Source of the DNA: Macrostomum lignano
Taxonomy: Eukaryota
Direction: 5' to 3'
NCBI GenBank assembly: GCA_002269645.1
Contig: NIVC01001322.1
Location: 148,598 to 212,597, forward strand
DNA: 64,000 bases
The notes below the pieces were generated by a model. The model worked only from the letters and a program-made list of their open reading frames with translations. It did no database searches and was not told the DNA's origin. Below, one piece after another: positions 15,395-50,397 of the stretch. The translations under genes and the position numbers were made by a program. Within the stretch, counting starts at the first letter, position 1. The number at the start of each line of letters is the position of its first letter.

Positions 15395-15940
15395 ACTTCT
15401 TCAATTAGTTCAGCCAATGCGTCGTTTGCTAAGGACATCTGGTGTACAAAATTAGCTCGAAGCTGACGTGAGGATAGTTTGTTTACTAGGGCGTGGACTC
15501 GAAAACTAGATATTATATAGCTGGATAGTTGTAGGAACCTATTGCTATTGCTTCTACGCTAGTATTTGAAATTTCATTCGGAATTTTTTTGTTAATTCTG
15601 ACCCAATAAAGTACTTGCAATACTTTGAAACTTGCTTGCTCGGTCTCTTCCCGATTTGAAAAATCCCAATCCTGATAAATCCGTTGGATGGTGTATAGCT
15701 GATATAGGATCCAACTGAAGCAAAGAGAATCGAAGACAGCGGATTTCATTGGATTTAACAAAAGTCAGGGTTTCAGTGGCTCACTCGATTCTGTTGTTAT
15801 TTTATATTTATACTATGCAAAGTAGAAATAGTATGGAAACCTATGGTTTTTTTCGATAAAGCTCACTAGCAATCTGCGCTCCTTTTAAACTGTCCATGTA
15901 TACAGCTCACAATTATTTTCATTTTTCTTTTCATTTGCTG

Positions 15941-16985
15941 TTGAGAATCTGCTTCTCCGCTCTTCCTCAGTCCTTGAGAATCTGCCACGCCGCTCTCTCT
16001 CAGTCCTTGAGAATCTGCCTCGCGGCTCTCCCTCAGTCCTTGAGAATCTGCCTCGCGGCTCTCCCTCAGTCCTTGAGAATCTGCCTCGCGGCTCTCCCTC
16101 AGTCCTTGAGAATCTGCCTCGCGGCTCTCCTTCAGTCCTTGAGAATCTGCCTCGCGGCTCTCCTTCAGTCCTTGAGAATCTGCCACTCCGCTCCCCCTCA
16201 GTCCTTAAGAATCTGCCTCGCGGCTCTCCCTCAGTCCTTGAGAATCTGCCTCGCGGCTCTCCCTCAGTCCTTGAGAATCTGCCTCGCGGCTCTCCCTCAG
16301 TCCTTGAGAATCTGCCTCGCGGCTCTCCCTCAGTCCTTGAGAATCTGCCTCGCGGCTCTCCTTCAGTCCTTGAGAATCTGCCTCTCCACTCTCCCTCAGT
16401 CCTTGAGAATCTGCCTCTCCACTCTCCCTTAGTCCTTGAGAATCTGCCTCGCGTCTCTCCTTCAGTCCTTGAGAATCTGCCTCGCGGCTCTCCTTCAGTC
16501 CTTGAGAATCTGCCACTCCGCTCCCCCTCAGTCCTTGAGAATCTGCCTCGCGGCTCTCCCTCAGTCCTTGAGAATCTGCCTCGCGGCTCTCCCTCAGTCC
16601 TTGAGAATCTGCCTCGCGGCTCTCCCTCAGTCCTTGAGAATCTGCCTCGCGGCTCTCCCTCAGTCCTTGAGAATCTGCCTCGCGGCTCTCCCTCAGTCCT
16701 TGAGAATCTGCCTCGCGGCTCTCCCTCAGTCCTTGAGAATCTGCCTCGCGGCTCTCCTTCAGTCCTTGAGAATCTGCCTCTCCACTCTCCCTTAGTCCTT
16801 GAGAATCTGCCTCTCCAATCTCCCTCAGTCCTTGAGAATCTGCCTCTCCACTCTCCCTTAGTCCTTGAGAATCTGCCTCTCCACTCTCCCTTAGTCCTTG
16901 AGAATCTGCCTCTCCACTCTCCCTTAGTCCTCGAGAATCTGCCTCTCCACTCTCCCTCAGTCCTTGAGAATCTGTCTCTCCGCTT
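15941..16985. repeat. 33-bp minisatellite, about 31 copies
   Basis: Unit CAGTCCTTGAGAATCTGCCTCGCGGCTCTCCCT, with recurring variant blocks. Confidence 0.96.
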
Positions 16986-17858
16986 CCTTCCCAATTAGCA
17001 ACCAGCTCTCAAAAATAGAAAAAAATCTGTTTCAAGAATTTCAAATAGCTTGTAGATCGAATACCCTAATTATTTTATATAAACACTGGCTCTACAGTGC
17101 CCTCTCAGTACTGTACGAGCATTGGAATTTTTGCTTACAGAGTCAGATCCAGATCAGGCCACAAACTTCCAGCGGAGCTTGTATTTGCGGTTTGAGTAAA
17201 ACGATCCAGCCACTACGCAGTCTTATCAGTTGGTAAAACCACACGGAGCATTAAACTGAGTTCGGCATTTTTTATCGAGTACTCAAGGGACTGCAAAGGC
17301 AGATTAGCACGGCATCGATCGGAGGCCGGAACGGGGACTTGTTGCAGAAAAATTGTCCAAAACAAAGTTGAAATGTCATTACAGTTACTTTGCTGGCGTA
17401 ATGCAGTTATTGGGAGATTTCGATACATTACCAATGACTCCATGGATTCGTAAGTATAAATGTGTCTACCATTTTGTACTTAGTATAATTTTCTTTTAAA
17501 CGAACTTGTTTCAGGTACCTGCTTTAAAACAAGTGCATAATTTTTTAGTTTGTAAAAGTACATGTCGCACTTTGTCGCTCTTGGAAATTGCCAAATTTTT
17601 ACGTAGCTTAGTGATCCAGCACTCCTGCTCGAGCACTATTACGACTCGATCTGTAGGGCCCAGTAAATACTGAAAAACTATAAATTTTATTGGTCGAAAA
17701 CACACATTCGATTGGAGAACTAATCCGATCGGGGAGATAGAGCCTATGGTCTTCTTTGCCTGTGGGCAGAGCAAATTTCTGCGCATTTTCATAGTACTAA
17801 GCTAACTGGGAGAACGTTTTGCATCACCATCGAACAGAACTAAATGCGCTAGTAGTAT

Positions 17859-18300: not shown

Positions 18301-18374
18301 GTATGTGTAACAAAAGCAGTATGCGAGATTTGCCTCATATTTTAAGCACCGAAAAGGCTCCAAAAGGTTGAAAT

Positions 18375-19244
18375 TGTAGTAGGGGGTTTAGTTCAAGCAG
18401 TTTTGCTAAGGGCGTTTGCCAAGGTTTCCGATTCGTCGAGATAATTATTTTAGTTTTCCGAAATCGAGAATAAGCAGTTTTGCTTTTACGCTACTGTTAG
18501 TAGTTCACCCTCGGGGAAATATCTGAAGTTGTGGGAATTCGAGTATTAGCGGGTTCCTCTATTAGTAAAAGGCTGTTTTTCCTCGGGAAAAGCATCCGTT
18601 CGGGACAATCAGTCAAGGATCCGTTCAGGACCGTCCATCAGGACAATATTTCAGAGACTAAGTCTCAAAGCACAAACTCAAAATATAAGGGAGTCTCCCC
18701 TTGTATAAAGATAGAAATACTAAAAAAATTCTAAAACAGAAATTAAGGGTAAGTTAGGGTAAAATAGGGAGGCTAAGAAGGAGTCTACCACTTAGTCAAA
18801 ACGGAGTCTACCGAAGAATAGGAATAAATTAGGTAACATAGGGAAAGACTAAGGGAGTCTACCATTAGTCTAACTAAGAATCGGAGTCTACCGAATTGTT
18901 AACATAGGGATTAATTGTATACCTTCTTTTGCATATTTGGTTTAATAATATTTCTTTTGTTTGTTTGATCTAAATAATCTTATATGAAATTGACTCTTGT
19001 CTCACTTATTTTAATTTAACATTAATTATAAGGGGCATTAGTCTGGTGGCAGCGACCTACCAAATAAAAGTACGTAATAGCAGATTAGTAGAGCAAAGTA
19101 AACCTAAGATCGTAACAACTATTCATCCAATTTAAGGTAGCTAGGAAATCTTCTAGCTTAATCTAAGCCCGGAGTCTCTCGAGCTTAGATTAATCAAATT
19201 AAAAATAAACCAGTAGCCTAAACCGCAGGTACCACGCTTGTCCA
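18375..19244 (+). repeat. 5' LTR (870 bp)
   Basis: TGTAGTAGGGGG...CTTGTCCA; identical by eye to the 3' LTR except for one extra G in CCCTCGGGGAAAT. Confidence 0.96.
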
Positions 19245-19246
19245 AT

Positions 19247-19256
19247 TGGTGGCAGC
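19247..19256 (+). other. Primer-binding site, probably tRNA-Leu
   Basis: TGGTGGCAGC lies 2 nt after the LTR and is complementary to the metazoan tRNA-Leu 3' end (...GCTGCCACCA). Confidence 0.7.
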
Positions 19257-19664
19257 TTAGGGGATTAGTAAACCCGAGAAACGCAAAAAGTTAAAGACTG
19301 GTGCAAAACTAGCAAAATCAGTAATATATATAACCTGCAAAATAAAAACGTTTCGGAAAGTCAGAATCAGGAGAGAAGGTAATCTAAATACTGAAACTAA
19401 TGCGATAATCCTAAATCCTAGGATTAACAAATTAAAGAACGAATTAACGCTTCTATTGAACTAGCAGTTTCGAAATTTGATAGCAAGGTCATAATTGACC
19501 CAGTTAAAAGTGAAGAGATCACGCAGTCTAGCAGTTCTGTTCACAAATTAGAAATAACCAATTAAAAACTAGTTAAATAGATCAGTGACTCAGGAGTCTC
19601 CCAGTCTCACTGAATTCAATTAATAGTAAGTATCAGAAGCGATAATTCGTAATTCGAAAAACTA

Positions 19665-20675
19665 ATGGACGCCAACGAAGTAGTAGAAGCTCTGGCTGAA
19701 GGAATTAGAGACAGACTAGACATTAGAAAGCACATTAGGATCCAAAAGTACACGCCTAATCAAGATATAGACGTATGGATTCAGGCTTTTGAGCAAAGGT
19801 GTATCGCAGATGAGATACCTGCAGCCGATTGGAAAAATGAACTACTATCTAATCTAGATGTCCAATCAGCGTTTGCTATTGTGACAAGGCTGAATTTAGA
19901 CCCTAATCTACCGTATGCTGAATTCAAGGATAGGCTCATCGAACGATTCACGCATGCGGGTAGTGCCCAAGAAGCTAGGGAAGAATTCCGCAGCAGATAT
20001 CAATCTAAGACAGAGAGCTCTGACGACTATGCGGAGAAGCTGACAGAGTTAGCCTATATGGCATTTCCCCACCTAACTAATGACCAAAGACAGGAAGAAG
20101 TGGTGGAACAATTTATTAGAGGTGTTAGGATAACCCTAGAGGCTAGGGAGAAGCTACTGCTAGCACAGGCGAACACACTCCAAGAGACACGTCGAGTTTT
20201 GCGACGTATCGAAATGGCGTATACCATGTCTCGCCGAGGTAGAGATCCAGCTCAGTGCAAGGCAACTGGAGGAGATGAGGCGGAAAGTAGCTTGAGGGAG
20301 TTAGTCCGCAAGCAAGGTGAGACACTAGAAAGCCAGCAGAGGGTACTCCAGGAGTTGCTTCGACACCAGCAGAGTGCTGAGCAGAAGGCTAGACAGAAGC
20401 CGTACCAAGGCCAGCAACAGGGCCAAGGTCAGAAGCAGCCAGTAAAGTGCTTCAAGTGTGGGAAAAGCGGTCACATAGCTAAGCATTGCCAGCAGCAGCA
20501 GAATCAGCCGCAGTTTCCGCAGCAGCAGTTTCCACAACCACCACAGTTTATTCCGTACCAGCCGCAGTACCCGCCGCCGCAGTTCCCGCAGCAGCAGTTC
20601 CCGCAGCAGTACCAGAATAAGAATCAGGGAAACGGAGTAGCCGGAAGCGTAGGAGGCAACGCTTTCCAGAAGTAG
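19665..20675 (+). CDS. gag: Gypsy Gag (336 aa) with CCHC zinc knuckle and Q/P-rich tail
   Basis: Retrotransposon-gag-like core (DIDVWIQAFE...FRSRYQ...DDYAEKLTELA..AFP) and the knuckle CFKCGKSGHIAKHC. Confidence 0.93.
   Translation: MDANEVVEALAEGIRDRLDIRKHIRIQKYTPNQDIDVWIQAFEQRCIADEIPAADWKNELLSNLDVQSAFAIVTRLNLDPNLPYAEFKDRLIERFTHAGSAQEAREEFRSRYQSKTESSDDYAEKLTELAYMAFPHLTNDQRQEEVVEQFIRGVRITLEAREKLLLAQANTLQETRRVLRRIEMAYTMSRRGRDPAQCKATGGDEAESSLRELVRKQGETLESQQRVLQELLRHQQSAEQKARQKPYQGQQQGQGQKQPVKCFKCGKSGHIAKHCQQQQNQPQFPQQQFPQPPQFIPYQPQYPPPQFPQQQFPQQYQNKNQGNGVAGSVGGNAFQK
20627..20667 (+). other. Programmed -1 ribosomal frameshift signal (G GGA AAC plus downstream stem-loop)
   Basis: The heptamer at 20627-20633 is in the correct Gag phase (cag gga aac). 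The -1 frame is open from 20621 into the protease. Stem GGAAGCGT (20643-20650) pairs with ACGCTTTCC (20659-20667), 9 nt downstream. Confidence 0.8.
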
Positions 20676-20740
20676 ACAGCCAGCAGTCTGTAGCCTCGCA
20701 ACCTGTAAATAGCAGCGATAGTTTTTCTGTAAATAGTGAA

Positions 20741-23700
20741 TTGAATTCTTTGTATAACAGTAGACATGCGCAACCATTTAATCAATCATTTAATCAACCA
20801 AATATTTATTCTCAGCACTTTTCACACGCACCACAGCAACAACCTTGTTCTAGTAAGCAGCAAATTAAACCACAAAATTTAAGCGAACCAACTAAGAAGC
20901 AAAATTACGATCCGTATATTACTGGCAGCATTCTAAATAAGGAGGTAGTTTATCTATTAGACACTGGCAGCAATAGGAACATTCTAGGACGTGAAACCTG
21001 GAAACACTTGTTCACTGGCAAGAATAGTCACTTAATTAAACAATGGAACAATAGAATCGTATCGTTCACAGAAGAGCCGATTCCAATTAAAGGTTCCGTA
21101 GTTATTAAGGCGACATTCGGTGATTTCGAAGAAGAAATAGAGTTTCTCTTATGTGACGCAGAAGTAGACAATGTAATAGGCGTGACGTTTGTCCAACAAT
21201 ATTGTAATGCTATCGACTTTGAGACAGGAATGCTAACTATGAAGCAGGGAACCAGAATTCCACTTCGTTCTACCAGAGCTAAGCCTCAGGTTAAGAGAAT
21301 CTATGTTGCAGAAAAGAGACAGTTCCAGCTAATAGTTCAGGATTAGTCAAGGTTAGATTAGCCACAGGTAGTGAATCCAATTTCGGAGTGCCGTCAGTTG
21401 TTGAGCCACTCAGATCAGGATTGAAGACTAGAGCAGAGAAGGTAACTGTAGTACCAAGCTTAGTAACTCTAAGGCAAGGAGAAGCGTATCTAGAAGTGAT
21501 TAACACCAGCTCACAGGAAGCTAGAGTGCCAGCAGCAGCACTAGTAGGAATGGCTAAGCCACTTTTCGCTAGTGAATTAAACTATCTTAAAGATCAACCA
21601 GAGAAAGAGCAGTTATGCCAGAATAAGAACACGCAGTTTTGCGAAAACATCAGACAGGTTCAAGACAAGTCAGAAGACTGGATTAGTGAGATTAACATAG
21701 GAACTGAACTGACTCAGGAGCAGAGACAGAAGGTGATCGAAGTCGTCAAGGAGCATTCAGCAGCTTTCTCGCAGCACGAGTTAGACTTAGGCAGAACGCA
21801 TTTAGTCACACATGAGATTATCTTGAAGGACAACAACCCAGTTCAGATACCAGCTAGAAAGATTCCACCTCATTGGATCAAGGAGGTAGATGAGCAGTTA
21901 GATCTCATGTTGGCTAGAGGCATCATTAGGCCTAGTTACTCGCAGTACTCGACTCCATTAGTCATAGTACCTAAGAAAGATGGTTCGCTGAGATTAGTTA
22001 ACGACTATCGAGCACTAAACAACAAATCGGAGTACTTTCCGTATCCAATAACTAATATTAATGAAACATTCTCGTGTCTCCATGGAGCCAGTCAATTTTC
22101 TACGTTAGATCTATTCTCAGGATATTATCAGATAGCTCTTAGGGAAGAAGATAAATGCAAAACTAGTTTTCCAACTTTACATCGAGGCTCGTTTGAGTAC
22201 GAAGTTTTGCCAATGGGATTGCAAGGAGCTCCAGGAACTTTCCAAAGGTGCATGAACTTAGTTCTTAAGGACATTGCACAGAAGTTCGCCATAGCTTACT
22301 TAGACGATGTAATAGTTTATAGTACAGACTTTGAATCTCACTTAGAACACCTGAAAGAAGTGCTCAAAAGACTAATCCAAGCTAATATGAAACTAAAAGC
22401 GAAGAAATGTCACCTTTTCAAATCAGAACTGCAATATCTAGGACACATCATAGGCAAATCAGGAATTAAAAGGGATGCGTCAAAGTTAGAAACGATTAGG
22501 AACTGGCCAAAACCTAAATCTGTGACAGAGCTTCGAAGTTTTCTCGGACTCTGTAACTATTATCGAAAGTTTGTTAGAGATTTCGCCGAGGTAGCAGCAC
22601 CACTCTGTGAGCTAACGAAGAAGAACATCAAGTGTATCCAGGACAATTGGACCAGGATTCATGATGAATGCTTCGAGCTGTTGAAGGAACGGATGTGTTC
22701 CGAAGAAGTGCTTGCTTACCCAGAGTTTAATACGGACCCCCAAGTTTATTTTGTGTTAGACACTGATGCATCAGATGTCAGAATTGGGGCGGTCTTAAAT
22801 CAAGTGCAGAGCGACGGAGTTGAGAGACCGATCGCGTATTATAGTCGAAAAATGAGGCAGTCAGAAAGTAGATACCCGATTACGAGGAAGGAGCTTCTAG
22901 CGATTGTTGACTCGCTGAAGTACTTCAGGTTTTACCTCGTAGGGAAACGTTTTAAGGTGCGCACTGATCACAATGCCCTAACCTGGTTGCTTCGCCAGAC
23001 CGAACAGACAGGCATTTTAGGTCGTTGGATCGAGAGACTTAGTGAATTTGATTTTGAGATTGAGCATAGAAGTGGCCCTAAGCATGTGAATGCTGATGCT
23101 CTATCCAGGATCCCGGATCCTCAACAGGATGAGTCATCCCCATATGCCAGGTCGCTTAGCTGTAGGGCAACTGTGAACACAGACCCAGCATCAGCTGTTA
23201 CTGTGAGCTCAGGCAATTCCGCGCAAGCCGAAACCTGTAGTCTGCACAGTGGAGTTACGTCATGCTGTTCGCCGCAGAATATGGCGCCGAACCGACACAA
23301 TACTCCGAGTTTTAGTAGCAGGTTGCTAAGCAAAAGGCAAGAACAGGAGCCTAAGGAAAGGTACCCGCTTGTTTGCAATGCACTGCTGAGTGATTACCTT
23401 CGTAGCCCAGTGCGTCGCGAAAATTTGGTCGCAGCTCAGCTAGCCGACCCCGCACTAAGCTATGTCAGGAATCTGATTGAATCTGACTTGCCGAAACCGA
23501 ATTTTCAAGAAAGACTAGAATTGTCTCATGAGATTAGAAATCTGCTAGGTTACTTTGAACTCTTCAGGATAGAAGGCGGTGTTCTCAGAATAGACTTAAA
23601 TTTAGGGCGGACCGAATCTAAAGTGGTGTTGCCCAAGTCTTTGGATGGTGAAGTTTTTCACGAATTCCACGATTCACCGTTAGCAGGTCATCTAGGAAGA

Positions 23701-25071
23701 GATAAAACTTATCAGCGAGTTAAAGAAAGATTTTGGAGAGTAGGATTAGCTACAGCAGTCGAAAAATACGTCGCCAAGTGCAAATCTTGTTTAGAAAGTA
23801 AATCAAGAAAGCGATGCAAGGCACCAGTGCAGAATTTTCCTATTGTCGAGCCATTCTCACGCCTTCACATTGATTTGATAGGTCCGATCAGTCAGACTAG
23901 CAAATCTGGTAACAAATATGTCTTGTCAGTTATTGACAGCACTAGCAAATTTCCGTTTGCGTTTGCAATTAAAAATCAGAAGGCTAAGACAGTAATCAAA
24001 ATTCTGCAGGAGCGAGTTTTCGCCGACTTTGGAATACCTCAGTGGATTCACACGGATCAGGGAACACAATTTACAGGGAGAGCATTTAGGAAATTTCTAG
24101 ACCTCTATGGGATTAGGCACGCTAGGACAACAAGCTATCATCCACAAAGCAATGGGCTAGTAGAGAATTTAAACAAACAAATTAAGTCAATTCTTACCTG
24201 TTTGCTCGAGAAAGAACATGCGAACTGGGATGTTCTATTGCCCGGTTGTATAACTGCATTGCGCACCAGCACGCATACAGCCACAGGTTTCAGCCCGCAT
24301 TATCTTGTGTTTGGAAGAGAGGCCCGGATGCCGAGTGACAATGTGTTCCAGCAGCCAAAGGCGTTCGCCGATCTGCCTGCTTATGTTCAAGAGCACTTGA
24401 CTCACCTGCAAGAGGGGCAAGAACTCGCCAAACAGCGGCTCAAATTAATACAACGTAATCGTGAGCAGCACTATTCTAACAAACCTAAACAACCAGACTT
24501 ACCTATAGGGAGCTTAGTTTTCATTAACAACCCAGTCATCACACAGACAGAAGCCAACAAGTTCCACAGGAAGAGAAGAGCAGTTTACGAGGTCATAGAA
24601 CAGTTATCAGAAGTAGTTTACAGGATTAGATTATTAAACAAAAGTACTAAGGCTAGAAAAGAGGAATTAGTCATGCATAGGGATAATTTACTACCCGTAC
24701 CAACAGCCGATTACGTTAGTGAGGAAGAAAAGCCAGAAAGCAGTTGTGCCAGGCGACCGAAACTTCGAGAAAATGTACCGCTTAATCCGATGTACGAAGC
24801 AGCCGACAGTGAGAGTGAACATGAAGATGAAGTGCAGTTTGTGCCAGTGCAAATTCAAAATAATGTTCCAGTGCCAGTGCAGGTTATGCCAGTGCAGGAT
24901 ATACCAGTGCAAGATATGCCAGTACAAAATAACGAACAGCCAGTAGTCGAAAATAGACCAGTTAGAAATAGACGGGAGCCGAGTAGATTAGCGATAGACC
25001 CAGGCCAGAAGAGCTACGTACAGAGAGTAAAGGAGTTGTTTAACCCCTATCTACTCTTCCAGCTCGAATAG
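20741..25071 (+). CDS. pol: Gypsy Pol: aspartic protease, RT, RNase H, integrase (one-base frame break near 21312-21315)
   Basis: LLDTGS protease; RT YLDDV; RNase H DTDAS...ELLAI...TDH; integrase HH-CC zinc finger, LHIDLIGP, IHTDQG, VENLNK. Adding one A to the A4 run joins ORF 20741-21346 to ORF 21388-25071 (VAEKETVPANSS). Confidence 0.95.
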
Positions 25072-25075
25072 CATT

Positions 25076-25905
25076 ATGGCTGATGCCCCGGAGCGCATTT
25101 ATCCTATTTAAAAAAAATTTATTCCGGAAAAAGGAGACATGATTCAGACGAAAATGAACCCCCGAGAGTGCGCGCAGTAAGGGTGATAGAAACGGCTGAC
25201 GAGCCCGAGAAACCCCATCCACGGGAAGAACCGATTACGAAGGAAGAAGAAGGCGAAGGTAGATTAATAATAGATCTGGGAGGCGCAGATCTGGAAGCCG
25301 AGACAAGGAAGCAGGAAGAAGAGAGAAGAGAAGAGCACGATGAGTTTTTACGAATGTTGCTAGATGTTAGCCTGCCCGATATTGAAGAGGCCTTGAGCCC
25401 TGCCAATGAGGCACCAGTGGCAGAGGAACCACCAAGCAATGATGTCCAAGAGCATAAGCCGGCTCCGGTGGCGGATGAGCCTCCCTTGGATGTCGCCGGA
25501 CTATTTCGAGACGACGCACCACCGCCCAGCAACCAAGACGCAGCGAACGAACCTTCCGGCGCCAGTCCAAGAAAGTTCCGGAAGTGCACAAAGGCCCTGA
25601 AAAGGTGGTTGCTGCAGACCGGCAACACGGGCCGGTACGATCCGACAGTGCCAGCGGCCTGCACACGATTTCTCGCTAAGGCTACGGCGGCGCAGCGCAT
25701 CCAGAGCTTAGAGGTGGCCTGCACCTATGCGTTGCAGCATGCAGAGGAACGGGCGAAAGGACCAATATCACCGTACCAGGTGAGTGAACATCTACGCGAC
25801 CTGGCAGAATTATTTGACCCGGAAGGCAAGAAAACGCCAGCAACCGGCCTGCTTTACCAGTGTGCGCAGAGGGCGCCAACCTGCCGACCCCTAGGGAATC
25901 TTTGA
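25076..25905 (+). CDS. Gypsy ORF3, non-env protein of unknown function (about 276 aa if one T is restored at 25107-25109)
   Basis: ATG 4 nt after the pol stop; reading frame open 25084-25905. Acidic/Pro-rich N-terminal half and a helical, Cys-containing C-terminal region. No signal peptide or TM segment. Confidence 0.65.
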
Positions 25906-26480
25906 GTTGAAAATTTAATAACCCAGGGATTAACGCTTCCATTGCTGCTATTTTTTTTTTTTGTTATTATTACACAACCACACAGCTTTAACTTTTCTTT
26001 TCTATGTTGTCTGCATTTTACACAGTGCCATAGTGCCATTTTTTTTTCTTTTTCTCAAATTATTGCACCGCTTCTTGGCCTTATATATATCTTTACATAT
26101 CGATAATATTCAGGAAGGAAACCTATATGGTCATTGCCTATTTCATGAATCCCATTATACTCAATGCTCACATAATATTGCTCAACTAATATTGTATGGC
26201 TTAATTATTGTCGTTTAATTTTCCTTAATCATGTACTCGTACTGTTTATTACCTTTGCTGATAGTATGCTATTATTACTACCTATACCGTATATTACTAA
26301 TTAATCATACTATGTTCCATACTATGCTATGCTACCATTACTCAGTTATTATTATTGCTTAATCATGCTCATTATATTGCTTATATTTAGTCCATGCATG
26401 CCACTACTAATACTGTCTGAATTACTTGAAATAAACCCGATATTAACTAAATATGCAAAGGGGTTTGCACATTTTTTTTT

Positions 26481-26493
26481 AGTGGGGGGTAAG
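26481..26493 (+). other. Polypurine tract
   Basis: AGTGGGGGGTAAG preceded by a T-run and immediately followed by the TG of the 3' LTR. Confidence 0.8.
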
Positions 26494-27362
26494 TGTAGTA
26501 GGGGGTTTAGTTCAAGCAGTTTTGCTAAGGGCGTTTGCCAAGGTTTCCGATTCGTCGAGATAATTATTTTAGTTTTCCGAAATCGAGAATAAGCAGTTTT
26601 GCTTTTACGCTACTGTTAGTAGTTCACCCTCGGGAAATATCTGAAGTTGTGGGAATTCGAGTATTAGCGGGTTCCTCTATTAGTAAAAGGCTGTTTTTCC
26701 TCGGGAAAAGCATCCGTTCGGGACAATCAGTCAAGGATCCGTTCAGGACCGTCCATCAGGACAATATTTCAGAGACTAAGTCTCAAAGCACAAACTCAAA
26801 ATATAAGGGAGTCTCCCCTTGTATAAAGATAGAAATACTAAAAAAATTCTAAAACAGAAATTAAGGGTAAGTTAGGGTAAAATAGGGAGGCTAAGAAGGA
26901 GTCTACCACTTAGTCAAAACGGAGTCTACCGAAGAATAGGAATAAATTAGGTAACATAGGGAAAGACTAAGGGAGTCTACCATTAGTCTAACTAAGAATC
27001 GGAGTCTACCGAATTGTTAACATAGGGATTAATTGTATACCTTCTTTTGCATATTTGGTTTAATAATATTTCTTTTGTTTGTTTGATCTAAATAATCTTA
27101 TATGAAATTGACTCTTGTCTCACTTATTTTAATTTAACATTAATTATAAGGGGCATTAGTCTGGTGGCAGCGACCTACCAAATAAAAGTACGTAATAGCA
27201 GATTAGTAGAGCAAAGTAAACCTAAGATCGTAACAACTATTCATCCAATTTAAGGTAGCTAGGAAATCTTCTAGCTTAATCTAAGCCCGGAGTCTCTCGA
27301 GCTTAGATTAATCAAATTAAAAATAAACCAGTAGCCTAAACCGCAGGTACCACGCTTGTCCA
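26494..27362 (+). repeat. 3' LTR (869 bp)
   Basis: Direct repeat of 18375-19244. Confidence 0.96.
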
Positions 27363-27649
27363 AAATCGATTTCTCAGAAAGATTTATTAAAACCGAACTG
27401 ATTTCTGAGAAATTAAAAAATCCGAAAACAATTCGTTCAGAACTGGCCAGTCTACTTTCATATAATTAACCCCACAGAGCGGTAAATAAATAAAAAACTG
27501 ACGCGACCATTTCACAAGTCTGTCGCAAAACTAAAGCTTTTCGCGTCGCCAAAAAATCGGTGCAAAAGAACGCGAAATAGTTGCGGTACAATTTGTTGAA
27601 CTTCAAGACGCGAGATAGGAGTGTGGAAGAACAATTAGCTGCAGGATTG

Positions 27650-30600
27650 TCACCGATTTGAGAAGCGCTGACAGTTGCCAGAGCATCCTGTTGTCGGGTG
27701 CAGACTGAACTCATCTAATAGAGCTAGGCAACGACAAACCGGACAGTCAGATGACAATCGATCCGAGCTGAGCTGACGCAACTGACGGGCAGAATTAGGC
27801 GATGATGACAGCAGAGAGCTTCGTCTGACCCGACGATTAGAGAAAGTCGTCGTTGTTGCCGTTGAATTGTCGTCGTCAGTGTCGCTGCAACTGCAGCTGC
27901 TGCTGCTGCTGTTTGACGTAGTAGAATCATCAACGGGAGCTGACACCGCGTGCCACACTGCGTGGCTGTATGGCCGTCGGGTGCAGACTCGATCGGACAG
28001 ACTCGACAAGCTTATGTCATTCAGTCGGGCATTAGCATTGCTGCTCTCCGTCACAAGAAGGGGCTTAGATTCCAGCTCGAAGCAGCGCTCGCTGCTGTCC
28101 GAGTGTGTCTCCTCGTCCGTGAGCAGAACTCGTTCAGCGATGCCAAATTGCGCCCTGTGACGCTGCGCCAGCGGCGATCCCGGCCTGAAGTCCTGCGGTT
28201 GGTGCAAGCTCGGCTGGAGTTGGACGTGCTGGCGAAGCGGTGGGATACGGCTGACACCTTCCGTAGGTACGGGCCGTTCCTTGCTAAGCGTTGTAGCGTC
28301 CTCTGTGGTGCTTTTAGCCCACCTGTGTTTTTGAGTAAATTTGTTATCGAGGCTGCTACTGTACTGATATCAAAGCTACGAGTACTACTGTACTGATACC
28401 AAAGCTAATACTGTACTGATACCAAAGCTACTACTGTACTGATATCAAAGCTACTACTGTACTGATACCAAAGCTACTACTGTATTGATACTGAGGCTAC
28501 TTCTGTACTGATATCGAGGCTACTACTGTACTGATATCGAGGCTACTGCTGTACTGATATCGAGGCTACTACTGTACTGATATCGAGGCTACTACTGTAC
28601 TGATACCAAGGCTACTTCTGTACTGATACCGAGGCTACTACTGTACTGATACCGAGGCTACTACTGTACTGATACCGAGGCTACTTCTGTACTGATTCCG
28701 AGGCTACTACTGTACTGATATCAAAGCTACTACTGTACTGATACCAAAGCTACTACTGTATTGATACTGAGGCTACTTCTGTACTGATATCGAGGCTACT
28801 ACTGTACTGATATCGAGGCTACTGCTGTACTGATATCGAGGCTACTACTGTACTGATATCGAGGCTACTACTGTACTGATATCAAAGCTACTACTGTACT
28901 GATATCGAGGCTGCTACTGTACTGATACCGAGGCTACTACTGTACTGATACCGAGGCTACTACTGTACTGATATCAAAGCTACGAGTACTACTGTACTGA
29001 TACCAAAGCTAATACTGTACTGATACCAAAGCTACTACTGTACTGATATCAAAGCTACTACTGTACTGATACCAAAGCTACTACTGTATTGATACTGAGG
29101 CTACTTCTGTACTGATATCGAGGCTACTACTGTACTGATATCGAGGCTACTGCTGTACTGATATCGAGGCTACTACTGTACTGATATCGAGGCTACTACT
29201 GTACTGATACCAAGGCTACTTCTGTACTGATACCGAGGCTACTACTGTACTGATACCGAGGCTACTACTGTACTGATACCGAGGCTACTTCTGTACTGAT
29301 TCCGAGGCTACTACTGTACTGATATCAAAGCTACTACTGTACTGATACCAAAGCTACTACTGTATTGATACTGAGGCTACTTCTGTACTGATATCGAGGC
29401 TACTACTGTACTGATATCGAGGCTACTGCTGTACTGATATCGAGGCTACTACTGTACTGATATCGAGGCTACTACTGTACTGATATCAAAGCTACTACTG
29501 TACTGATATCGAGGCTGCTACTGTACTGATACCGAGGCTACTACTGTACTGATACCGAGGCTACTTCTGTACTGATTCCGAGGCTACTACTGTACTGATA
29601 TCAAAGCTACTACTGTACTGATATCAAGGCTACTGCTGTACTGATACCGAGGCTACTGCTGTACTGATATCAAGTCTACTACGAGACTTACCTGTCAGGA
29701 TTCACCAGCCTATGCTGCTCCGCAATATCGCTGCCGCCGCTACTGAAGGGACCAGGAGTGCTACTTGTTCGACGAGATCGACTAGACGCATCGCTAACGA
29801 TATGCAACACTGGACGACTGCTCGAAGGTGGAGCAGTGCTCAGCGGCGATTGATCCCGATAGAGTTCGCTTGGTTTCTTTTTATCACTTTCGCCAGTGTA
29901 ACTCTGTCCAAGTCGAGCCTCTGGCGACTGATCTACCGATGTTGTCGGCATTGATAGACCAACTGGAGTGCGACTGTTGACTGGCGGTTGCTGCGGTTTG
30001 ATTCCATCGGGACCCCGCGATGGTATCGTCGTGCTGTCGAACTCTGAAGCGTACCCAGTTCGGTTGTCACTGGCTGATAGTGGAGTGGTAGTTTCTAGTT
30101 CAGTGCGTAGCGGTTGGCCAGTCCCGGAGTCTGGATTATATGGATCGGCTCTGGTATTGATGAGCCTTTTTTCTGGGTCTTGTTGAAGCCCAGCTCGACT
30201 ATCAGTGCTCGGCGATAATCCCGTACTGCTAGCAGGCTGAAACCGAGTCGCACTTTCTGTGCCTATTAAAGCTCCAGTCTTTGTGTCACTACCGAACGGC
30301 TTTGTTGTCGATTGGGGCGACATTGAATCCTCATCTTTTATTGGGCTATTGAATTTGACTTCCGGAGCTGTTCTCAAAATAGGTTGATTTTGACCCAACC
30401 CATTCTTGCTGTCGGTGCTTGGAGAAAACGCAGTGCTGCCACCAGTCCTGCTGTCTACTTGTATTGGCAGATCAGTCCTGTTGTCCACTGCTGCTGGAAG
30501 ACCAGTCCTGCTGTCCACTGCTGCTGGAAGATCAGTCCTGTTGTCCACTGCTGCTGGAAGACCAGTCCTGCTGTCCACTGCTGCTGGAAGACCAGTCCTG

Positions 30601-33600
30601 TTGTCCACTGCTGCTGGAAGACCAGTCCCGTTGTCTACTGCTGCTGGAAGACCAGTCCTGTTGTCAACTGCTGCTGGAAGACCAGTCCTGCTGTCCACTG
30701 CTGCTGGAAGATCAGTCCTGCCGTCCACACCAGTCGGTTGACCAGTCCTGCCGTCCACACCAGTCGGTTGACCAGTCCTGCTATCTACACCTGATGGTTG
30801 ACCAGTCCTGCTATCTACACCTGATGGTTGACCAGTCCTGCCGTCCACACCAAATGGTTGACCAGTCCTGCCGTCCACACCAGTTGGTTGACCAGTCCTG
30901 CTATCCACATCAGATGGTTGAACAGTCCTGCCGTCCACACTAGTCGGTTGACCAGTCCTGCCGTCCACACCAGTCGGTTGACCAGTCCTGCCGTCCACAC
31001 CAGTCGGTTGACCAGTCCTGCCGTCCACACCAGTCGGTTGACCAGTCCTGCCGTCCACACCAAATGGTTGACCAGTCCTGCCGTCCACACCAAATGGTTG
31101 ACCAGTCCTGCCGTCCACACCAGTTGGTTGACCAGTCCTGCTATCCACATCAGATGGTTGAACAGTCCTGCCGTCCACACTAGTCGGTTGACCAGTCCTG
31201 CCGTCCACACCAGTCGGTTGACCAGTCCTGCCGTCCACACCAGTCGGTTGACCAGTCCTGCCGTCCACACCAGTCGGTTGACCAGTCCTGCCGTCCACAC
31301 CAAATGGTTGACCAGTCCTGCCGTCCACACCAAATGGTTGACCAGTCCTGCCGTCCACACCAGTTGGTTGACCAGTCCTGCTATCCACATCAGATGGTTG
31401 ACAAGTCCTGCCGTCCACACCAGTCGGTTGACCAGTCCTGCCGTCCACACCAGTCGGTTGACCAGTCCTGCCGTCCACACCAGTCGGTTGACCAGTCCTG
31501 CCGTCCACACCAAATGGTTGACCAGTCCTGCCGTCCACACCAAATGGTTGACCAGTCCTGCCGTCCACACCAGTTGGTTGACCAGTCCTGCTATCCACAT
31601 CAGATGGTTGACCAGTCCTGCCGTCCACACTAAATGGTTGACCAGTCCTGCCGTCCACACCAGTTGGTTGACCAGTCCTGCTATACACACCAGTTGGTTG
31701 ACCAGTCCTGCTATCCACATCAGATGGTTGACCAGTCCTGCTATCCACATCTGATGGTTGACCAGTCCTGCTATCCACACCAGATGGTTGACCAGTCCTG
31801 CCGTCCACACCAGCTGGTTGACCAGTCCTGCTATCCTCACCAGATGGTTGGCCAGTCCTGCCATCCATCGCTGTCGGGATACCAGGCTTACTGTCCACAG
31901 CTGATGCTTGATCAGTCCTGCTGTCCACTTGTGTTGGAAGACCAGTTCTGTCATCTACTAATGTCGGGAGATCCGTCTTGCTTTCCCCATCAGATTGGAG
32001 ACCAGCCCTGTGGTCTGCTGTTGGAAGACCAGCTCTGCGGTTCTCTGTTGGGAGACCAGTCTTACTGTCCAAAACCGATGTTAGACTAGTTCTTCCGTCC
32101 GCACCAGTAGGTGGATCAGTTCCGTGCGAGCCAGTGTGTTCATTTGCTTCCGAAAAAAAACTGTTTGGCGTTTCTATTCCCGCTGTTTGGTTAGTCCTTA
32201 CAGATTGAACAGGCATGCCTTCACTGCTTGTCTGACCTCCTGTTTTAACTCCAGTGCTTGTTGGAACTGGAGTTTTATATTCACTGCTCTGCAAAACCTC
32301 AGTTCTGCTGTCACTGTTTGTGGGAAATATCGTTCGACTGTCGCTGCTCACAAGCTGCTCACCAAGCTGCTCGTCGCGGCTCTCGGTTGCAGACGAATCA
32401 ATTGTTGCCGTGCTGCGTTGCAGTGCATCTTTGCTGTCACTTTCTGCATTAGTTTCTGCTTTCTGATCTTCTGGTCGAGCTAGTGAGACACCTTTAGCTG
32501 GAACGACACCTGAGTCTGTACCACCTGCTCTGTGCGAGTATCCCTCCATAGCCGGCGCTTGAACTTCAGCAGCGGATGGTGTTCCCCACCTACTGTCACT
32601 CACTGCCTTGGTTTCAAATTGGTCTTTTGAAACCATTCCCGGTGTGCTTAGTCTTTCTTCACTGATCGAAGATAAACCTTTTTGCTGCGGCTCAGATTCT
32701 GAACGAACGATACCATGCTTGTCGGGCTGAGAAGTGTCATCTGATGGTAAACTCTTTTCTGCCAGTTGGTTAGTGAACTTGTCAGGCTGGTTGTCTGTCT
32801 CAGAATAGACGGGTTTGTCCACCTGGTCTATATTATCAGCAGGTTGGTATCCAGTGTGACTGTCTTGCTTCAGCTGTTTAGACTGATAGTCGGGATTTTC
32901 ATCTAAGGAAGTCTGAAAAGCTTCTTGTTGCCCAGGCTCGTTCCCGTATGTCGCCTGGGCAGGCGCGTATTCAGAGCTGCTGGCGGGAAAATTACCAGGT
33001 CCACTTTCAATTTTTTGTAGTTGAGGCTGATATTTTGTTCCATCATCGAGCATGCTTGTGGCAGGTTGACTTTCGGGTCCACTGTCAGATAGCTGCTGGT
33101 CAGGCTGGAATTCTTGACTTCTGTCAGTGATTGATGCAGCGTGTTCATGGTGCGGGGCTTTTTCCTCAGATGCTGCAGCTGGCTGGTATTCAGTTCTACC
33201 GTCAGGAGATGTTATGGAAATTTGTGGGAGTTTTCCCTCAGTTTCTGCCAGCTTTCGGTATCCAGGTCTCTCGTCGAGAGCAGTTGCGGAAGGTGCCTCT
33301 TTAAAATCTGTCGCTGAAGGTTGGTAAAAAGGTCTTCCATCAGGTGTTGTAGCATCCGGCTGGTTTGCAGATTTACCGTCGGGTGGTATCGTATGATTGT
33401 ATTCAGGTCTTCCGTCCGGTGTTGCTTCAGGCTGTAATTCGAGTCTAGTTTCAGGAGTTTCAGCCATAGGCTGATATCCAAGTCCACTTTGAGATGGTGC
33501 AGAAGGTTGGGTTTCAAGTTTACTATCAGAAGATTGGTATCCTGGTCTCTCATCGGGTATGATTGCAGGTCGGTGCACTCCGGATTCAGACTGGAAATCA

Positions 33601-36600
33601 GGTCTCCCTTCGGTTGTTGCATCAGGTTGATATTCAGGTCTTCCAACAGCTGTTACGTCACTTTGGTATCCAGTTCTCGGCTGGAATCGTTCAATTTCAT
33701 CGACTGCTGCTGCACCAAAATTGTCTGCAGGCTTTACAGCAGATGCTTCACCCAATTTGTATCTGTGGCCTTCGCCAGAGGTCGCATCCGTTTGGTATTC
33801 AAGTCTTTTATCAAATGGTATAGCAGGTTGGGATCCAGGTGTTTCATCGGGCGTTGTTGAAGGTTCTAGTTCCGTTCTTGCATCTATTTCTGTTGTTTCT
33901 TGTTGCTTTTCGGGTCTCTCGTTTGTTTCTGTAACATTTTTATATTCAGGTGCTGTTTGGTAGTCAGCTCTAGCTGGTGTAGACACTGCAGGTTGATATC
34001 CGGGAACGTTTCCAACTTTGAGTTTGGTATCGAGTTCACTGCCGCCAGTTGCCTGACCTTGAAGTTGGTAATCCTCGGTTGGCTCTATTTGTTGATAGTC
34101 CTGTCTGTTTTCCTGCGCTTGCTGAGCAGGCTGTTGGATCGATTTGTTTTTTAGGGCGTCATTTTCAGGTATATAACCTGTGGAACCATCTGCTAAGTTT
34201 TGCGGCTTTGCCGGAGTCGTTTCACTGTAGTCCTGCGACAACTGCTGCGCTGGCTGTAATCCGATCTTATTAACATTAACCGCAATTTCATGCCCATGCT
34301 CTGGTCTTGAGACCACCGAAGCAGCAATTCCGGCTGGCGTCTTTTTAAGCTCGCTAAGCGACAGCTCCGGCTTGTAAATTTTGCTGGTTCTTTTCACAAG
34401 CTGTTCGGTTTGGTATTCTCCTTTGGCTGCTGGATCATTTCCCGATCCTGCCCCTGAAACTGAGTTATCTGTCTCGTACTCCAGTTTTTCAGTCCTCGGA
34501 ACTCCTGTTCCAAGGACCGTCTTTGCTGCGTATTTTTGCGATATAGGATCACTTTCCGATGCTGGTTGGTTGCTGGGTATGGACTTTTCAGACTTCTCGT
34601 ACACATATGGCGCGCTGTCTTTGAAGAAATGACTAGGTTGGTAGCCCATATTTTGCCGATCGTACACTTGCTGGCCAGGGTGATTCTCCGGTGTAGTTTG
34701 ATCTTGAGCACCTGAACCAAGTTGGTAACTACCTGACATAGTCTTGTGCGCGTACTGAATCTGTTTGTATCCGAGTGACTTGCTATCCATTGCAGATTCG
34801 TTTGGTAATTTTCCGACTTGCGCTGTTCCTTGGCCGATATCAGTAGCTGTAGTCTCCAACTGACTGTGTGGCCTGCTTCCAAACTCAATCGTCATGGACT
34901 CTTTATTATCAAAAAGGCTATTTGGTCGACCATAGAACTGCGAAAATGAGTAACTATTTGGTCTACTACTAACGTATGGTTCCCCAGAATGGTCCAGCTC
35001 ATTCTTGTGCAAACTTTGTTGTTGTTCCTGAGCTGCCGCCCCTGCATCTGCAAGGGGGCTGCGTAGAGCTGTTTGTTCATTTTGATAGTCGGTGAAAGAT
35101 TCAGTGTGACTTCGGCGAGACACGTACTCAGACTTGTCAATAGTCAGTGTTCCGCCCTCCGACTCAAACTTCAGACTGTTGTATCTTTGATAGCTTTCCT
35201 GGCTGGTTTTGTTAAATTGAAGAGCAGCTGTAAATGCATCGTTATCTTCCCTGATAACAGGAATTGATCTGATGTCGGCTGTTGAACTGGCTTTGCCGTT
35301 TTCAAAGCATGTGCTTGAACCTTTCTCAGCAGCTTTGAAGCTTTTTTCAGCTATGCTCGAGCGCCGTTGTTCAGTTCCTGAATATCCCGGCTTCATCTGC
35401 GTTATCTTGTTAAATCCGTCCCTCTTGCCGGCAATACTTGGCCTTCTGCTGCCGTCAGATCCGATGCTTAGCTGGCTAGTACGATTACCTACGGCCCCAG
35501 GTGGATAAATTGGTCCACAGGTTTCAGATGTGACGCTGCCGCGATGCTGCTTCAACCTGTCGTCAGTGTCTGGCGATTTTTCAACAATCGCACCTGGTGG
35601 CAATAGCGGTCTTTCGCAAGTCCCAGGAGATATGCCTGTCGGAGATACTGCCGCGTCCAGCATTTGACTTCGTCTTCTTTGTTCTGCCCCCGGTGGATAG
35701 TAGATCTTTGCTGGAGTTGGGCCTGAGCCTGGCGGAATAGAGCTTTGCGGTGGTTTGCTCTCGTTGTCGACAGGTTTATCAACTACTGCACGAGAAGGAT
35801 GCGACTCGTCACCTTCAGGTGGCTGTTTTGCAAGTTTTCCCGCATCTTCGGGCACATCCTCTGTAATATTGGTTGCAGTTTCAAGCTGCTGTGTGGTTTC
35901 TTGTTTTGGAGCTGGCTGAGTATCAGTCCGTCTGAGGTGCTCTGACTCAGGGCTGGTATCTGGTTGCTGACTTCGTTGCGCACTGTCTTTATTGATCTTT
36001 TCTTGCGGAATTCCTCTATCATCTAGACCAAAATTTCCTTCTCCTGAATTTTCTGGATGTGTACTTTCTGTGCCAGTTGAAAATTTACTTGGAAGCTTGT
36101 CGAATTCATCAGCAGACACCTTCGGTTTATGATCAGTGCCTTGATTTTCAAGAGCCAACTTTTCCTCAACATCACGTTGCCTGACATCATCCGCGGCGCT
36201 GGTTTTTGATTCACCGCTCGTTTCCATCGGTTTCGCCTGCTTTGTGTCGCTTTTAGGGCTTTGTAGGTCTAAATTTTCGCCATCATTGGCTTTATCCGCA
36301 GATTCTTCAGCAGCAGCAGCCTCTGCTCGCGAGTCTGACGCTTTTGACTCTGCTACGTCATCACGTTGCGGCCGCTTGTGAAGCTGCGTCTGTCCAGCGC
36401 CTTCTAAACTGTCAACAATGGTCTCTTGCTGGCTCAACTGTTGAGACTTTCCTTGCTGCCCGTCACTGGGAGCTTCAATTCGTTGATATTCATCGCTGTC
36501 GCTGGGCAGTGCGTCTCTGGACTTAGCTTCTGTTAACTCTTGATTCTCAGTAGTCGGTCGTGACACTTCAGCAGCGGAATCTGTCGGTGGTACTGGCACA

Positions 36601-39600
36601 TTCTTCGTGATCGGAGCAGTGTCTACTTCACTGGAAGGTTGCACGTTGTCGTCCACTGGTTTGGGCTTGGGGCCAACATCTGGCGCACTCTGGACACTGT
36701 CTTGAGCATTTCCAACGGGCCTATCCTCCTCACTGATTTTTCGTGGGTTTTCTGCCAGCGCCAAATCAGTGGCGATTTCTTTAGCGGGTTCTTTACTGTG
36801 AACTCCGTCCTCTTCATTTATTTTAGGTATTTTCCCGTAAACTTGTTTATCATCCTTCTTTTCTGTGCTCCCATCTCTGCCTTTGTCAATAAAAAGTTTA
36901 TCATCTCTGTCCTTCTCATGGCCAGCTTTCGTTGTGCTGTCTAAGTATTTGTCAGTGCCATAACTGGAATCGGTCTGAGGTTCATGCCCATCAATATATC
37001 CCATCGGCAGTTTATCGCTTTTGTCCCGCAACGACGAGCGTCTCTTTAGACCACGTTTAGTGACGTTCGGTTCACCGAGCTTTGAATATCTATAATCGTA
37101 TTCTGTAGAGTAGCCTAGCTTGTTGGCGCTGGGCCTTTCGCTCCATTGTTCGTAATTCCACTCTTTGCCTTGGCTTGGATCAGTGACAAGATCAGCAAAT
37201 TTGCCTTCGGCTCTGCCAGAATACTTGCCAACCGACACTTTGTCCGTCCAGCCGCCGTACTGTTCCACCAATTCATTGTCTCTTAAGGGATCCGGCATTC
37301 CTGCTTTGTCGAAATCTGCAACATCGTCGTATTTCTGCGAAGTCTTGCTACTGAGTCGATCATGCTGTCCAAGGCTACCTCTCTGATAGTATCTGTCTGG
37401 ATGCTTTTCACCGTCGGGATCGAGCTTTGTGCCTTTAAAGCGATCGTTTAGGTAATCTGGCTGGGCTTTGTTGCGATCATATGGTAGAGCACCTGTCTGC
37501 GGCTGGCTTTCGGGTATTTTGTTGTATTTCGTATCAGTTCTCCAGTTTTCAAACGAAGAGCCGTACTTTCCATACTTCTCGCCCGTGCGAAATTGACCAG
37601 ATTGACCATCATATTCAGTTGGCGCCTTGAACTGATCTCTAGGCCTATGTTTATCAGCCAACGTACCATTAGTCCATTGACCTTCGTTTGCGTCCGCTGC
37701 AGCTGCATAGTCTCTAGGAAGGTGGTTGCCACGTCTCTTGTAATCATTTGGTAAACTTCCCGCTCTTTGTGTTCCCGGATAATTGTCTGTTTCAGGTCTC
37801 AGCTTGTTGCCAGGAAACTGCTGATGCAGCTGCCACGGGGCGTTAAACATCGGTCTCAGGGCAGCTGACTCCAAATCACCTGAGCGCCTTCTACTGCGGT
37901 CAAAACCTTCATGTCGTTGCCGTCTTAAATAGTCTTGTTCTTGCTGCTGCTGCTGTTGTTGCTGCTGCTGCTGTTGTTGTTGATCTTGCAATTGTTCCTG
38001 TTGCTGCTGTTGAAGACTATACCGCCTTGAGCGCCTAGACTTGTCTACCGGCTCGTTACGTTCCATGTAAGCAACAGAGTCATCGGGATGGCAGCAGGTC
38101 GCGTACACGTCCACTTGGTGTCTGTGCCGTGGTTGCTGCAATTCTCCAGGACAATCTGAAACGCACGTCATGCGTCTCGTGTGACAGACCGACGCTTCGT
38201 CTGCAAACAGCAATATGACACAAATTGAGCAATTATTTTACATTGGTCGACGAATAAATAAGAAGAATTAATTACAAAATATTGATGAACCGAATATTCT
38301 TAAAAGTATAAACTTACAACAGTTCGTCCGGCAGTCGACCAATGAGCCTTTTCCAACTCTACCAGCGCATTCCCCTCGGCTGCGCGCTGTCATAACGCGC
38401 TGGTCGCGCCTGATCAGCATTGTTGGAGGGTGCCTGCGTTGTTCCATAGGCTGATCTCTTTGCCTGGAGCAGCAACAGCTGCAGTAGTAGCAACAGTCAC
38501 AAGTAGTTGTTGAACGACCATCTTGACGATCTATTCCGCAATACATTCGACCATCCGAACGTTCGTCGCATTCTTCATTGTCAGACGATTCGTCGAAACA
38601 ATAGGGTTTATGAGGGAAACCGCTGCAATCTTCGGTGCTTTCCTCCTCGGATGAAGACTCCTCACCATCGCGTTTGAGCACGCAGCACATCGGCGACCGA
38701 CTGCAGTCGCTGTCGAAGACAATTTGAACCGCTGTTTGACTGCCGCCTACGCAGTCCTGAACCCGCTGCTGTGCGGACGGTCGCGAGTGTCCTCGAGGGT
38801 GCATCTGTCGGCTCTGGCGCCTTCTACCGCTAGAAAAGCTATCGTACGATTGGGTGCGCCTATTCTCGGCTGGGTGTAAGCACTGCAGCATGGATACAAC
38901 TGGGCCCTGATGGCACTGCCGATTGTTGGCTGAAACTGTTGACAGCTGCTGGCTTAGTCGTGGCTCTCTCTGTCGGCTGCGATCGACTTGATATGTGCTG
39001 CGATTCGATGCACACTGATTTAGGTACTCATAGCTCGACTCGTCACTGCTGTCCACGTAGGCCCCCGTGGTGCCGTAGCAGTTGCTAGTAAAACAGCTAC
39101 AATAACTATAAGCACTTTCGCAGTGTCTGGCTGACTGACTACTGAATATTCTGCTGCTGTCGGTTGGCATTGGCGAATGACGCTTTTTTAGTCCCATCGG
39201 AACAGCATTCGGGTTTGGAGACGGCACTGAATTTGATGCGTAAATGTCGCACCTGGGCGGGCGATGCACTGTGTGATGACATCCAGCTGACTTGACTTCA
39301 ATGTTGTTGGCGTTGTTAGTCGATTCTCTGGGCACAGGGGGTAGCGGGCGCGAGTACTGGGAGCTGGCGAGCGCGAGCTGAAAGGTCCAGAAAAACTTTT
39401 GCTTAAATTCGACTTCGACATCTTTACAGAATCCAGTCGATTTAAGCGTCATTTTGGATATCTACGAGTGCTTTTAGAGACAATGACACGCAGTGAAGCC
39501 CCGAGATGTCTCAAGACCAAAGTCACTCGGCTCCCTGGTGCAGTAGGTGGTCGGCAGAGTTCCTTCTACAGACCAAAAGCTATAAGCGCCTCAAGATCTA

Positions 39601-50174: not shown

Positions 50175-50221
<47 letters not shown>

Positions 50222-50304: not shown

Positions 50305-50397
<93 letters not shown>

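Follow-up and report, generated by a model that had tools for sequence, protein, structure and literature searches.

A third, non-Env open reading frame between pol and the 3' LTR of a Ty3/Gypsy element in Macrostomum lignano

The host element and its third reading frame

The window, i.e., the whole 64,000-nucleotide stretch of Macrostomum lignano DNA analysed here, carries at positions 18375-27362 a Ty3/Gypsy element in which gag is followed by pol with the domain order PR-RT-RH-IN, per Pfam. The element also has an LTR pair, a target-site duplication (TSD), a primer-binding site (PBS), and a polypurine tract (PPT). The features of the element and of the reading frame downstream of pol, referred to here as ORF3, are as follows.

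18375..19244, plus strand: 5' LTR with TG...CA ends; target-site duplication AAAT just before it (18371-18374)
18780..18891, plus strand: GGAGTCTAC motif, four exact copies arrayed within the 5' LTR and again in the 3' LTR at 26898-27009
19247..19256, plus strand: primer-binding site TGGTGGCAGC; sister elements start at the same place
19665..20675, plus strand: gag with zinc knuckle (Pfam, open frames)
20621..25071, plus strand: pol (PR-RT-RH-IN), in the -1 frame relative to gag; TAG stop at 25069-25071
24455..24460, plus strand: splice donor within integrase; GTAATC in the window, GTAAGC in other group A copies
25039..25062, plus strand: TTTAAC resembling a branch point, pyrimidine tract, and CAG acceptor; overlaps the final codons of pol
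25076..25905, plus strand: ORF3; window copy off-frame at a homopolymer run near 25107-25119, sister copies 275 aa
25129..25137, plus strand: basic cluster KRR, putatively NLS-like
25258..25377, plus strand: LIIDL hydrophobic motif; long, acidic amphipathic helix with DEFLRMLLD at its end
25558..25902, plus strand: conserved basic five-helix C-terminal domain (predicted; model pLDDT 77.6, pTM 0.72)
25906..26493, plus strand: AT-rich 3' UTR that differs between types, with the polypurine tract at its end
26494..27362, plus strand: 3' LTR; AAAT directly after it (27363-27366)

The PBS is one that we take to be of the tRNA-Leu type; searches for tRNA and Rfam matches found none. All eight exact matches to the LTR motif in the window fall within the two LTRs, and the array is a candidate set of protein-binding sites, judging from its sequence. 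No heat-shock element was present in the LTRs scanned (three from the family and eight from sister elements). The nearest named relatives of the RT are labelled Macrostomum lignano (58-59% identity), with others at 42-50%; as the RT tree was built from this genome's elements and matches of unnamed clade, with no reference RTs, our placement of the element as Osvaldo-like is a guess.

The description of the element as active-looking in the first-pass annotation is borne out by its LTR pair, which differs by one mismatch and one gap over 874 columns, but not by its pol, which is broken by a frame change between protease and RT near 21295-21346, where a sister copy has a single 1483-codon pol frame. 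An empty insertion site, joining 18370 to 27363, was found in one run (X15, probably DNA), so the insertion is either polymorphic or missing from a second copy of the region.

ORF3 begins with an ATG at 25076, 4 nt beyond the pol stop, as had been annotated. In the window as assembled, the frame of this ATG ends after 11 codons, and the remainder lies in a 273-codon open frame (25084-25905) that contains both the acidic, Pro-rich first half and the C-terminal region originally described. It had been proposed that restoring one T would yield a continuous product of about 276 aa. Such a continuous ORF does exist, being unbroken from the same ATG in four of the five sister copies most similar to the window's, but its length there is 275 codons. 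The suggested choice between three and four T residues at 25107-25109 did not turn out as guessed: six of seven runs cover the homopolymer, and all six differ from the window in another way. All six runs listing the protease-RT break differ from the window there too, so both breaks are either errors or private to the window copy; because run contigs cannot tell this copy from near-identical sisters, assembly error and private mutation are both possible. At window position 24459 (splice donor position +5), the window again stands apart, both from every other group A copy and from the runs; this is a third private difference or assembly error.

Across the 48 family copies examined, some of which may be assembly duplicates, the ORF3 ATG could be located in 44, and the frame is complete in 27 of these (240-285 aa); three further copies, with 236-248 codons, shift frame before the end. 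Two copies (L093 and L108) retain a complete 277-aa ORF3 and 3' LTR with pol replaced by unrelated sequence 60 nt upstream, and in another (L094:6940-7883, G000:C734) the gag-pol remains in front of an ORF3 of the window's group belong to another family (RT about 57%), which may reflect a chimera or nested insertion.

Several other features of the window and its relatives were observed. A second PBS-like sequence, TGGTGGCAGCG, lies within each LTR (19044-19054 and 27162-27172), 100-200 nt before the true PBS, and the pair recurs in both groups, in those copies with a retrieved 5' end. The disordered integrase tail (24830-24950) contains tandem MPVQ repeats in which Pro is encoded by CCA in 55 of 59 cases across both groups even though neighbouring synonymous sites are saturated; the repeats may be a DNA-level element. 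Outside the element, the minus strand of 29688-38237 holds a low-complexity open frame of 2849 codons that carries tandem repeats of 10 residues and is probably a host exon; in the two parts scanned, its Pfam matches were compositional only. Tandem arrays occupy 15800-17070 (33-nt unit), 28245-29700 (23), 42700-43800 (11), and 49985-50800 (8/12).

The ORF3 protein and its relatives

The ORF3 product is built from an N-terminal basic cluster, found within the first 50 residues of all 15 intact proteins, an acidic helix, and the C-terminal domain. The helix is predicted over residues 69-96 (pLDDT 81-92 in blocks 71-90), and 14 of 16 proteins have an acidic window (net -5 to -11 per 30 residues) around a hydrophobic-x-x-hydrophobic-hydrophobic motif, a region that may be activation-domain-like, judging by composition and motif. 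The C-terminal domain has a pI above 8 in 13 of the 15 family sequences and in all eight sister sequences, the other two family sequences being acidic (pI about 6). A SIM-like hydrophobic motif in acidic context, found with a custom pattern based on the SIM consensus, occurs in 13/15 proteins, and a leucine-rich NES-like pattern closes the acidic helix in 6/6 group A proteins and is on that helix in 0/9 of group B.

The view that ORF3 is not Env holds up: none of the 15 intact family proteins has a TM or signal-peptide-like stretch by hydropathy (highest 19-residue value 0.65), nor is there a hydrophobic stretch in seven of seven sister proteins (highest 1.03 across both sets). Furin-like RxK/RR sites occur in 7/15 proteins at differing positions, with none in the window's type, and no such site is conserved. 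At 240-285 aa and with no TM helix, ORF3 also differs from fusogens of the sORF2/FAST kind, which are about 70-115 aa long with a central TM helix. The alpha/beta enzyme domains of the bdelloid kind (GDSL, DEDDy) are likewise absent, neither structural model containing a strand and 13 of 13 proteins lacking a Pfam match.

Database searches for relatives found little outside this genome. A single-protein homologue search retrieved nothing at E<=0.01, a C-domain profile had no match at E<=0.1 among longer proteins, no ORF3 match was found in metagenome and viral contigs, and Pfam, PHROGs, and NCBIfam gave nothing near cut-off. A profile of the full ORF3 retrieved three matches among 1.84 billion representatives: two were repeat-driven, and the third is a chimeric gene model, likely from Macrostomum lignano itself, whose start is nearly letter-identical to group B ORF3 and whose first 125 residues had no usable Atlas feature match. 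Foldseek against PDB and viral structures found nothing at E<=0.001, and the best VIA Z values (8.0 and 7.2) were to generic helical bundles, resembling no known DNA-binding domain, a result that does not by itself make the fold novel. The family and fold checks suggested for the C-terminal region therefore matched nothing known. Profile positions 35-94 align nearly ungapped to two DNAJC9 chains, presumably the histone-binding part of that protein, at E-values that are not significant (0.22 and 0.91). A modelled complex of ORF3 residues 40-105 with host H3-H4 scored 0.03, which weighs neither for nor against binding.

Within the genome, there are at least 78 matches to the ORF3 C domain, with 33-100% identity. 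None of those examined in context (40 regions; 28 mapped) lies in a recognisable host gene, and one (L086) is a decayed, isolated fragment.

We also compared 14 sister elements with RT 57-64% identical to that of the window. Nine of them have a post-pol ORF that begins with an acidic amphipathic helix and continues through a Pro/Gln-rich linker to a helical C domain; four have an ORF of similar size that is not alignable, and one has an unrelated frame. The profile match between the sister-type and ORF3 C domains (probability 69%, P 4e-5, 61 columns, helices 1-3 only) scored 32.5, with 150 block shuffles reaching 22.3 at most and reversed profiles 14. On this sequence evidence, the two domains are likely, though not proven, to be homologous. 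Sister-type ORF3s have at least 150 matches in the genome; LTR pairs, found in eight of the nine sister elements, are 97.7-100% identical. Motif arrays are present in the window LTRs and in four of the eight sister LTR pairs.

Further variants were seen among related elements. In one sister family (L128, L129, L131, and L143), an ORF3 immediately after pol is acidic at first and both basic and helical towards its end, aligns to neither type, and is accompanied by a 15-fold repeated motif in the 3' region; in one of these copies (L131:1047-6443, G000:C1746), pol and the third ORF form one 1798-codon frame. Elsewhere, a different 217-codon frame with no Pfam match lies 1.6 kb past pol behind a tandem repeat array (L130:7262-7915).

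Selection, modular divergence, and the ORF3 message

Selection was estimated from unbroken natural frames alone, with broken copies dropped, leaving 15 ORF3, 10 RT, and 11 integrase sequences. The codon model gave a dN/dS of 0.078 for the C domain, 0.133 for the middle, and 0.107 for the N-terminal 34 codons, with dN/dS=1 rejected in each part (twice the log-likelihood gain 534, 259, and 158, respectively); the same model gave 0.060 for RT and 0.057 for integrase. Pairwise values for whole ORF3 between types were 0.05-0.21 where dS was computable, with two recombinant pairs reaching about 0.3. The data required no codon class with dN/dS above 1 (twice the log-likelihood gain 0, 1.5, and 0 in a custom mixture likelihood with the tree fixed, a test of low power at saturation). 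The ratio among family copies, 0.08-0.13, is thus far from the value near 1 that had been named as counting against function. Function had earlier been argued from retention in a zero-age element; a functional ORF is indeed what the data point to, but the basis is selection across old types and not the youth of a copy that is broken. Together, these results support ORF3 as a functional, non-Env accessory ORF.

At 88% nucleotide identity, the 44 copies form a single RT type and two types each of gag, protease, and integrase, with 12-13 types per ORF3 segment and 8-17 LTR types. These types occur in varying combinations with one another, and reshuffling has also occurred within ORF3. Identity drops sharply at the ORF3 ATG: in 200-nt bins, two copies (L095 and L097) are 93-100% identical across gag-pol, falling to 89% in its final bin and to 54-70% between the ATG and the end of the 3' UTR, and their RT dS is 0.037 where ORF3 is saturated. 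Synonymous positions, the UTR, and the LTR have diverged just as deeply, and sister families repeat the pattern, with RT 98-99% identical and C domains 46-51%. A distal UTR is common to three ORF3 types. The pattern fits either balancing of the 3' module or repeated gag-pol sweeps.

As for how ORF3 is expressed, a GT..AG splice joint from 24454 to 25063 was found in one contig at depth 2.2 in one of seven runs (X1, which is RNA by guess, as are all RNA labels on the runs). The joint is not listed in the six other runs, and unspliced contigs span the site. Six bases beyond the donor lies a GTGAGC, present in both groups. The acceptor ends 13 nt upstream of the ATG, and its CAG is kept in 47 of 48 copies and deleted in one; the Gln codon that it overlaps is CAG in about 55% of cases in pol, and there are few independent lineages among the copies. 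A spliced transcript from LTR to ORF3 had been suggested as a check. One GT-AG joint near the ATG was indeed found, but with its donor in integrase and not in the LTR, and no LTR-to-ORF3 joint is among the four joints listed.

Among 44 copies, the pol stop and the ATG are 2 nt apart in 21, 3 nt in 4, and 4 nt in 19, a variability which argues that ORF3 starts on its own. The sister ORF3s, in the six elements with unbroken pol and ORF3 starts, begin 224-536 nt past the pol stop. An RRCCAAT motif stands upstream of 8/9 of them, compared with 29/148 gag-pol control windows, and CCAAT plus TATA upstream of 4/9, compared with 0/148, although these four are close relatives (RT 93-95% where compared) and not independent. 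LTR motifs are not enriched in the internal-promoter regions of the sisters, and no promoter motif adjoins the ATG in the window's group. Of the two routes first proposed, reinitiation or a subgenomic RNA, a separate message is favoured; reinitiation is unlikely in view of the varying gap of 2-4 nt, the GT-AG joint, and the location of the likely sister homologues at a distance from pol, eight of nine of them behind a CCAAT box. Two other routes were rejected. Fusion of integrase to ORF3 by splicing would be out of frame in the window's group, and the frame of the ATG relative to pol varies among copies, which also tells against read-through from pol. ORF3 is likely translated from its own message.

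Possible functions of ORF3

We lean, with somewhat less than even confidence, towards a reading of ORF3 as a nuclear activator of its own element that would work like foamy-virus Tas or plant VANC. Its message would arise separately from the genomic RNA, through splicing in the window's family and, in sister families, through an internal promoter with CCAAT and TATA motifs. Nuclear entry may depend on the basic cluster; once there, the protein would contact element DNA, possibly the LTR motif arrays, through its basic five-helix domain, and its acidic amphipathic helix would attract coactivators or dislodge silencing chromatin. Exchange of ORF3-UTR-LTR as modules, alongside homogenisation of gag-pol, would keep old types in existence.

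An acidic helix joined to a basic domain is a possible transactivator layout which, together with an internal promoter, parallels foamy virus Tas/Bel1, described in the relevant part of PMC7390438 as having an internal promoter, an acidic activation domain, and a separate DNA-binding domain. Both are accessory genes close to the 3' end, so Tas may serve as a model of how ORF3 works and no further; in ORF3, the acidic part comes first, reversing the order, the host is a Gypsy element rather than a retrovirus, and searches of Pfam, PDB, and viral folds found no match to Tas. The promoter likeness extends to the CCAAT/TATA motifs of sister families, and not to the ATG of the window's group. The divergence among close families and the LTR motif arrays would likewise parallel VANC (PMC5735166). 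VANC21 and VANC6, which remove DNA methylation, are accessory proteins of Arabidopsis VANDAL elements that diverge between close families and are accompanied by tandem motif arrays in the non-coding DNA of the element, per the sections of PMC5735166 and PMC6719617 that treat them. In contrast to these plant DNA transposons, the ORF3 and LTR types of Macrostomum are not one-to-one: C-types h, i, and j have the LTR motif GGAGTCTAC in common, and type j is found with three LTR types, so that a protein type is not paired with a motif array of its own. This lack of pairing counts against the activator reading, which draws on composition and layout, traits that export factors and adaptors may have as well.

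One such adaptor would be a protein-level antagonist of host silencing or restriction, engaging SUMO, Piwi-pathway, or ubiquitin-ligase components, with its types kept by frequency-dependent selection. The 12-13 old types on one RT type, recurring in sister families, and the SIM-like motif would suit it; nevertheless, we consider it rather improbable, as no codon class with dN/dS above 1 emerged (from a test of low power at saturation) and the equally deep synonymous, UTR, and LTR divergence means that repeated gag-pol sweeps alone could produce the pattern. A Rev- or CERV-like factor, made from a spliced message and letting unspliced genomic RNA leave the nucleus, strikes us as improbable. 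The genomic RNA does contain a usable GT-AG intron, the basic cluster and basic domain would fit, the NES-like pattern is present throughout group A, and Cer1 CERV, as described in part of PMC10309623, is a precedent; yet that pattern is missing from the acidic helix throughout group B, ORF3 has no window of excess synonymous conservation and no Rfam match, a separate promoter seems to serve the sister families, and a distal UTR is common to three ORF3 types.

The near-ungapped DNAJC9 alignment is what would suggest a chromatin tether or histone-binding helper, acting, e.g., in integration targeting through a DNAJC9-like H3-H4-binding helix. With its E-values not significant, sister ORF3s retaining only a short acidic helix, and 12 ORF3 types on two integrase types, this is very doubtful, and it is because those types share two integrase types that a targeting factor is the least favoured of the candidates first put forward. 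That ORF3 is an Env remnant or small fusogen is scarcely credible: the location between pol and the 3' LTR and the spliced message are env-like, but all 15 family and seven sister proteins have no hydrophobic stretch, and the protein is acidic and half disordered. We regard a captured host fragment or functionless chance frame as equally hard to credit, since the 17 of 44 copies broken as assembled, the window's included, are set against a dN/dS near 0.1 at synonymous saturation and the absence of any examined match in a recognisable host gene.

Other elements with additional ORFs offer partial likenesses, so far as the cited portions of the sources go. The ORF3s of bdelloid rotifer LTR retrotransposons, comprising GDSL esterases, DEDDy exonucleases, and coiled-coil or TM proteins, are also family-specific, modular third ORFs past pol in a separate transcription unit; that of Macrostomum, in contrast, is an all-helical orphan with many types per one pol (PMC5408684). 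CERV of C. elegans Cer1, a 517-aa protein with exons common with gag, a cysteine loop, and a G-protein-like domain, is likewise an orphan that an animal Gypsy element encodes as an accessory protein, with a spliced message and candidate NLS, whereas ORF3 has its own ATG past pol and one small helical domain (PMC10309623). Drosophila MDG1-group sORF1 and sORF2 lie upstream of gag and encode about 110 and 70 aa; they are small accessory ORFs under purifying selection, sORF2 being a membrane fusogen and sORF1 a nuclear protein described there as being of unknown function (bioRxiv 10.1101/2025.03.14.642691). The additional ORFs of plant LTR retrotransposons are conserved, of unknown origin, and located between pol and the 3' LTR, but the sense ones are mostly env-like with TM segments and others are antisense, with no ORF3 match found in the part of the source consulted (PMC7264820).

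No description of ORF3 was found in the literature outside subscription journals, Repbase entries, and bioRxiv supplements, and the word 'ORF' is absent from the text and five supplements of a flatworm LTR paper (PMC12801592). Non-env third ORFs are known from the portions cited of PMC5408684, PMC7264820, and PMC10309623; no published account was found of this protein family, of its occurrence throughout the branch, or of its dozen exchangeable types. A passage of a 2019 review gives TE-encoded anti-silencing as known from plants only, with none against the piRNA pathway (PMC6719617). A conserved, nuclear-looking orphan spread across a branch of recently active animal elements, with genome matches numbering at least 78 for ORF3 and at least 150 for the sister type, makes a direct candidate for such a role. 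The abrupt loss of identity at the ATG clearly illustrates modular evolution of LTR elements, and a dozen natural types on one pol make specificity testable with reporters. It is possible, though we put it forward tentatively and think it rather less probable than not, that a branch of animal LTR elements encodes a sequence-specific activator or anti-silencer from an undescribed domain family, expressed from its own promoter or a spliced message, and that its variants would be swapped as specificity modules on a common gag-pol, much like phage immunity regions.
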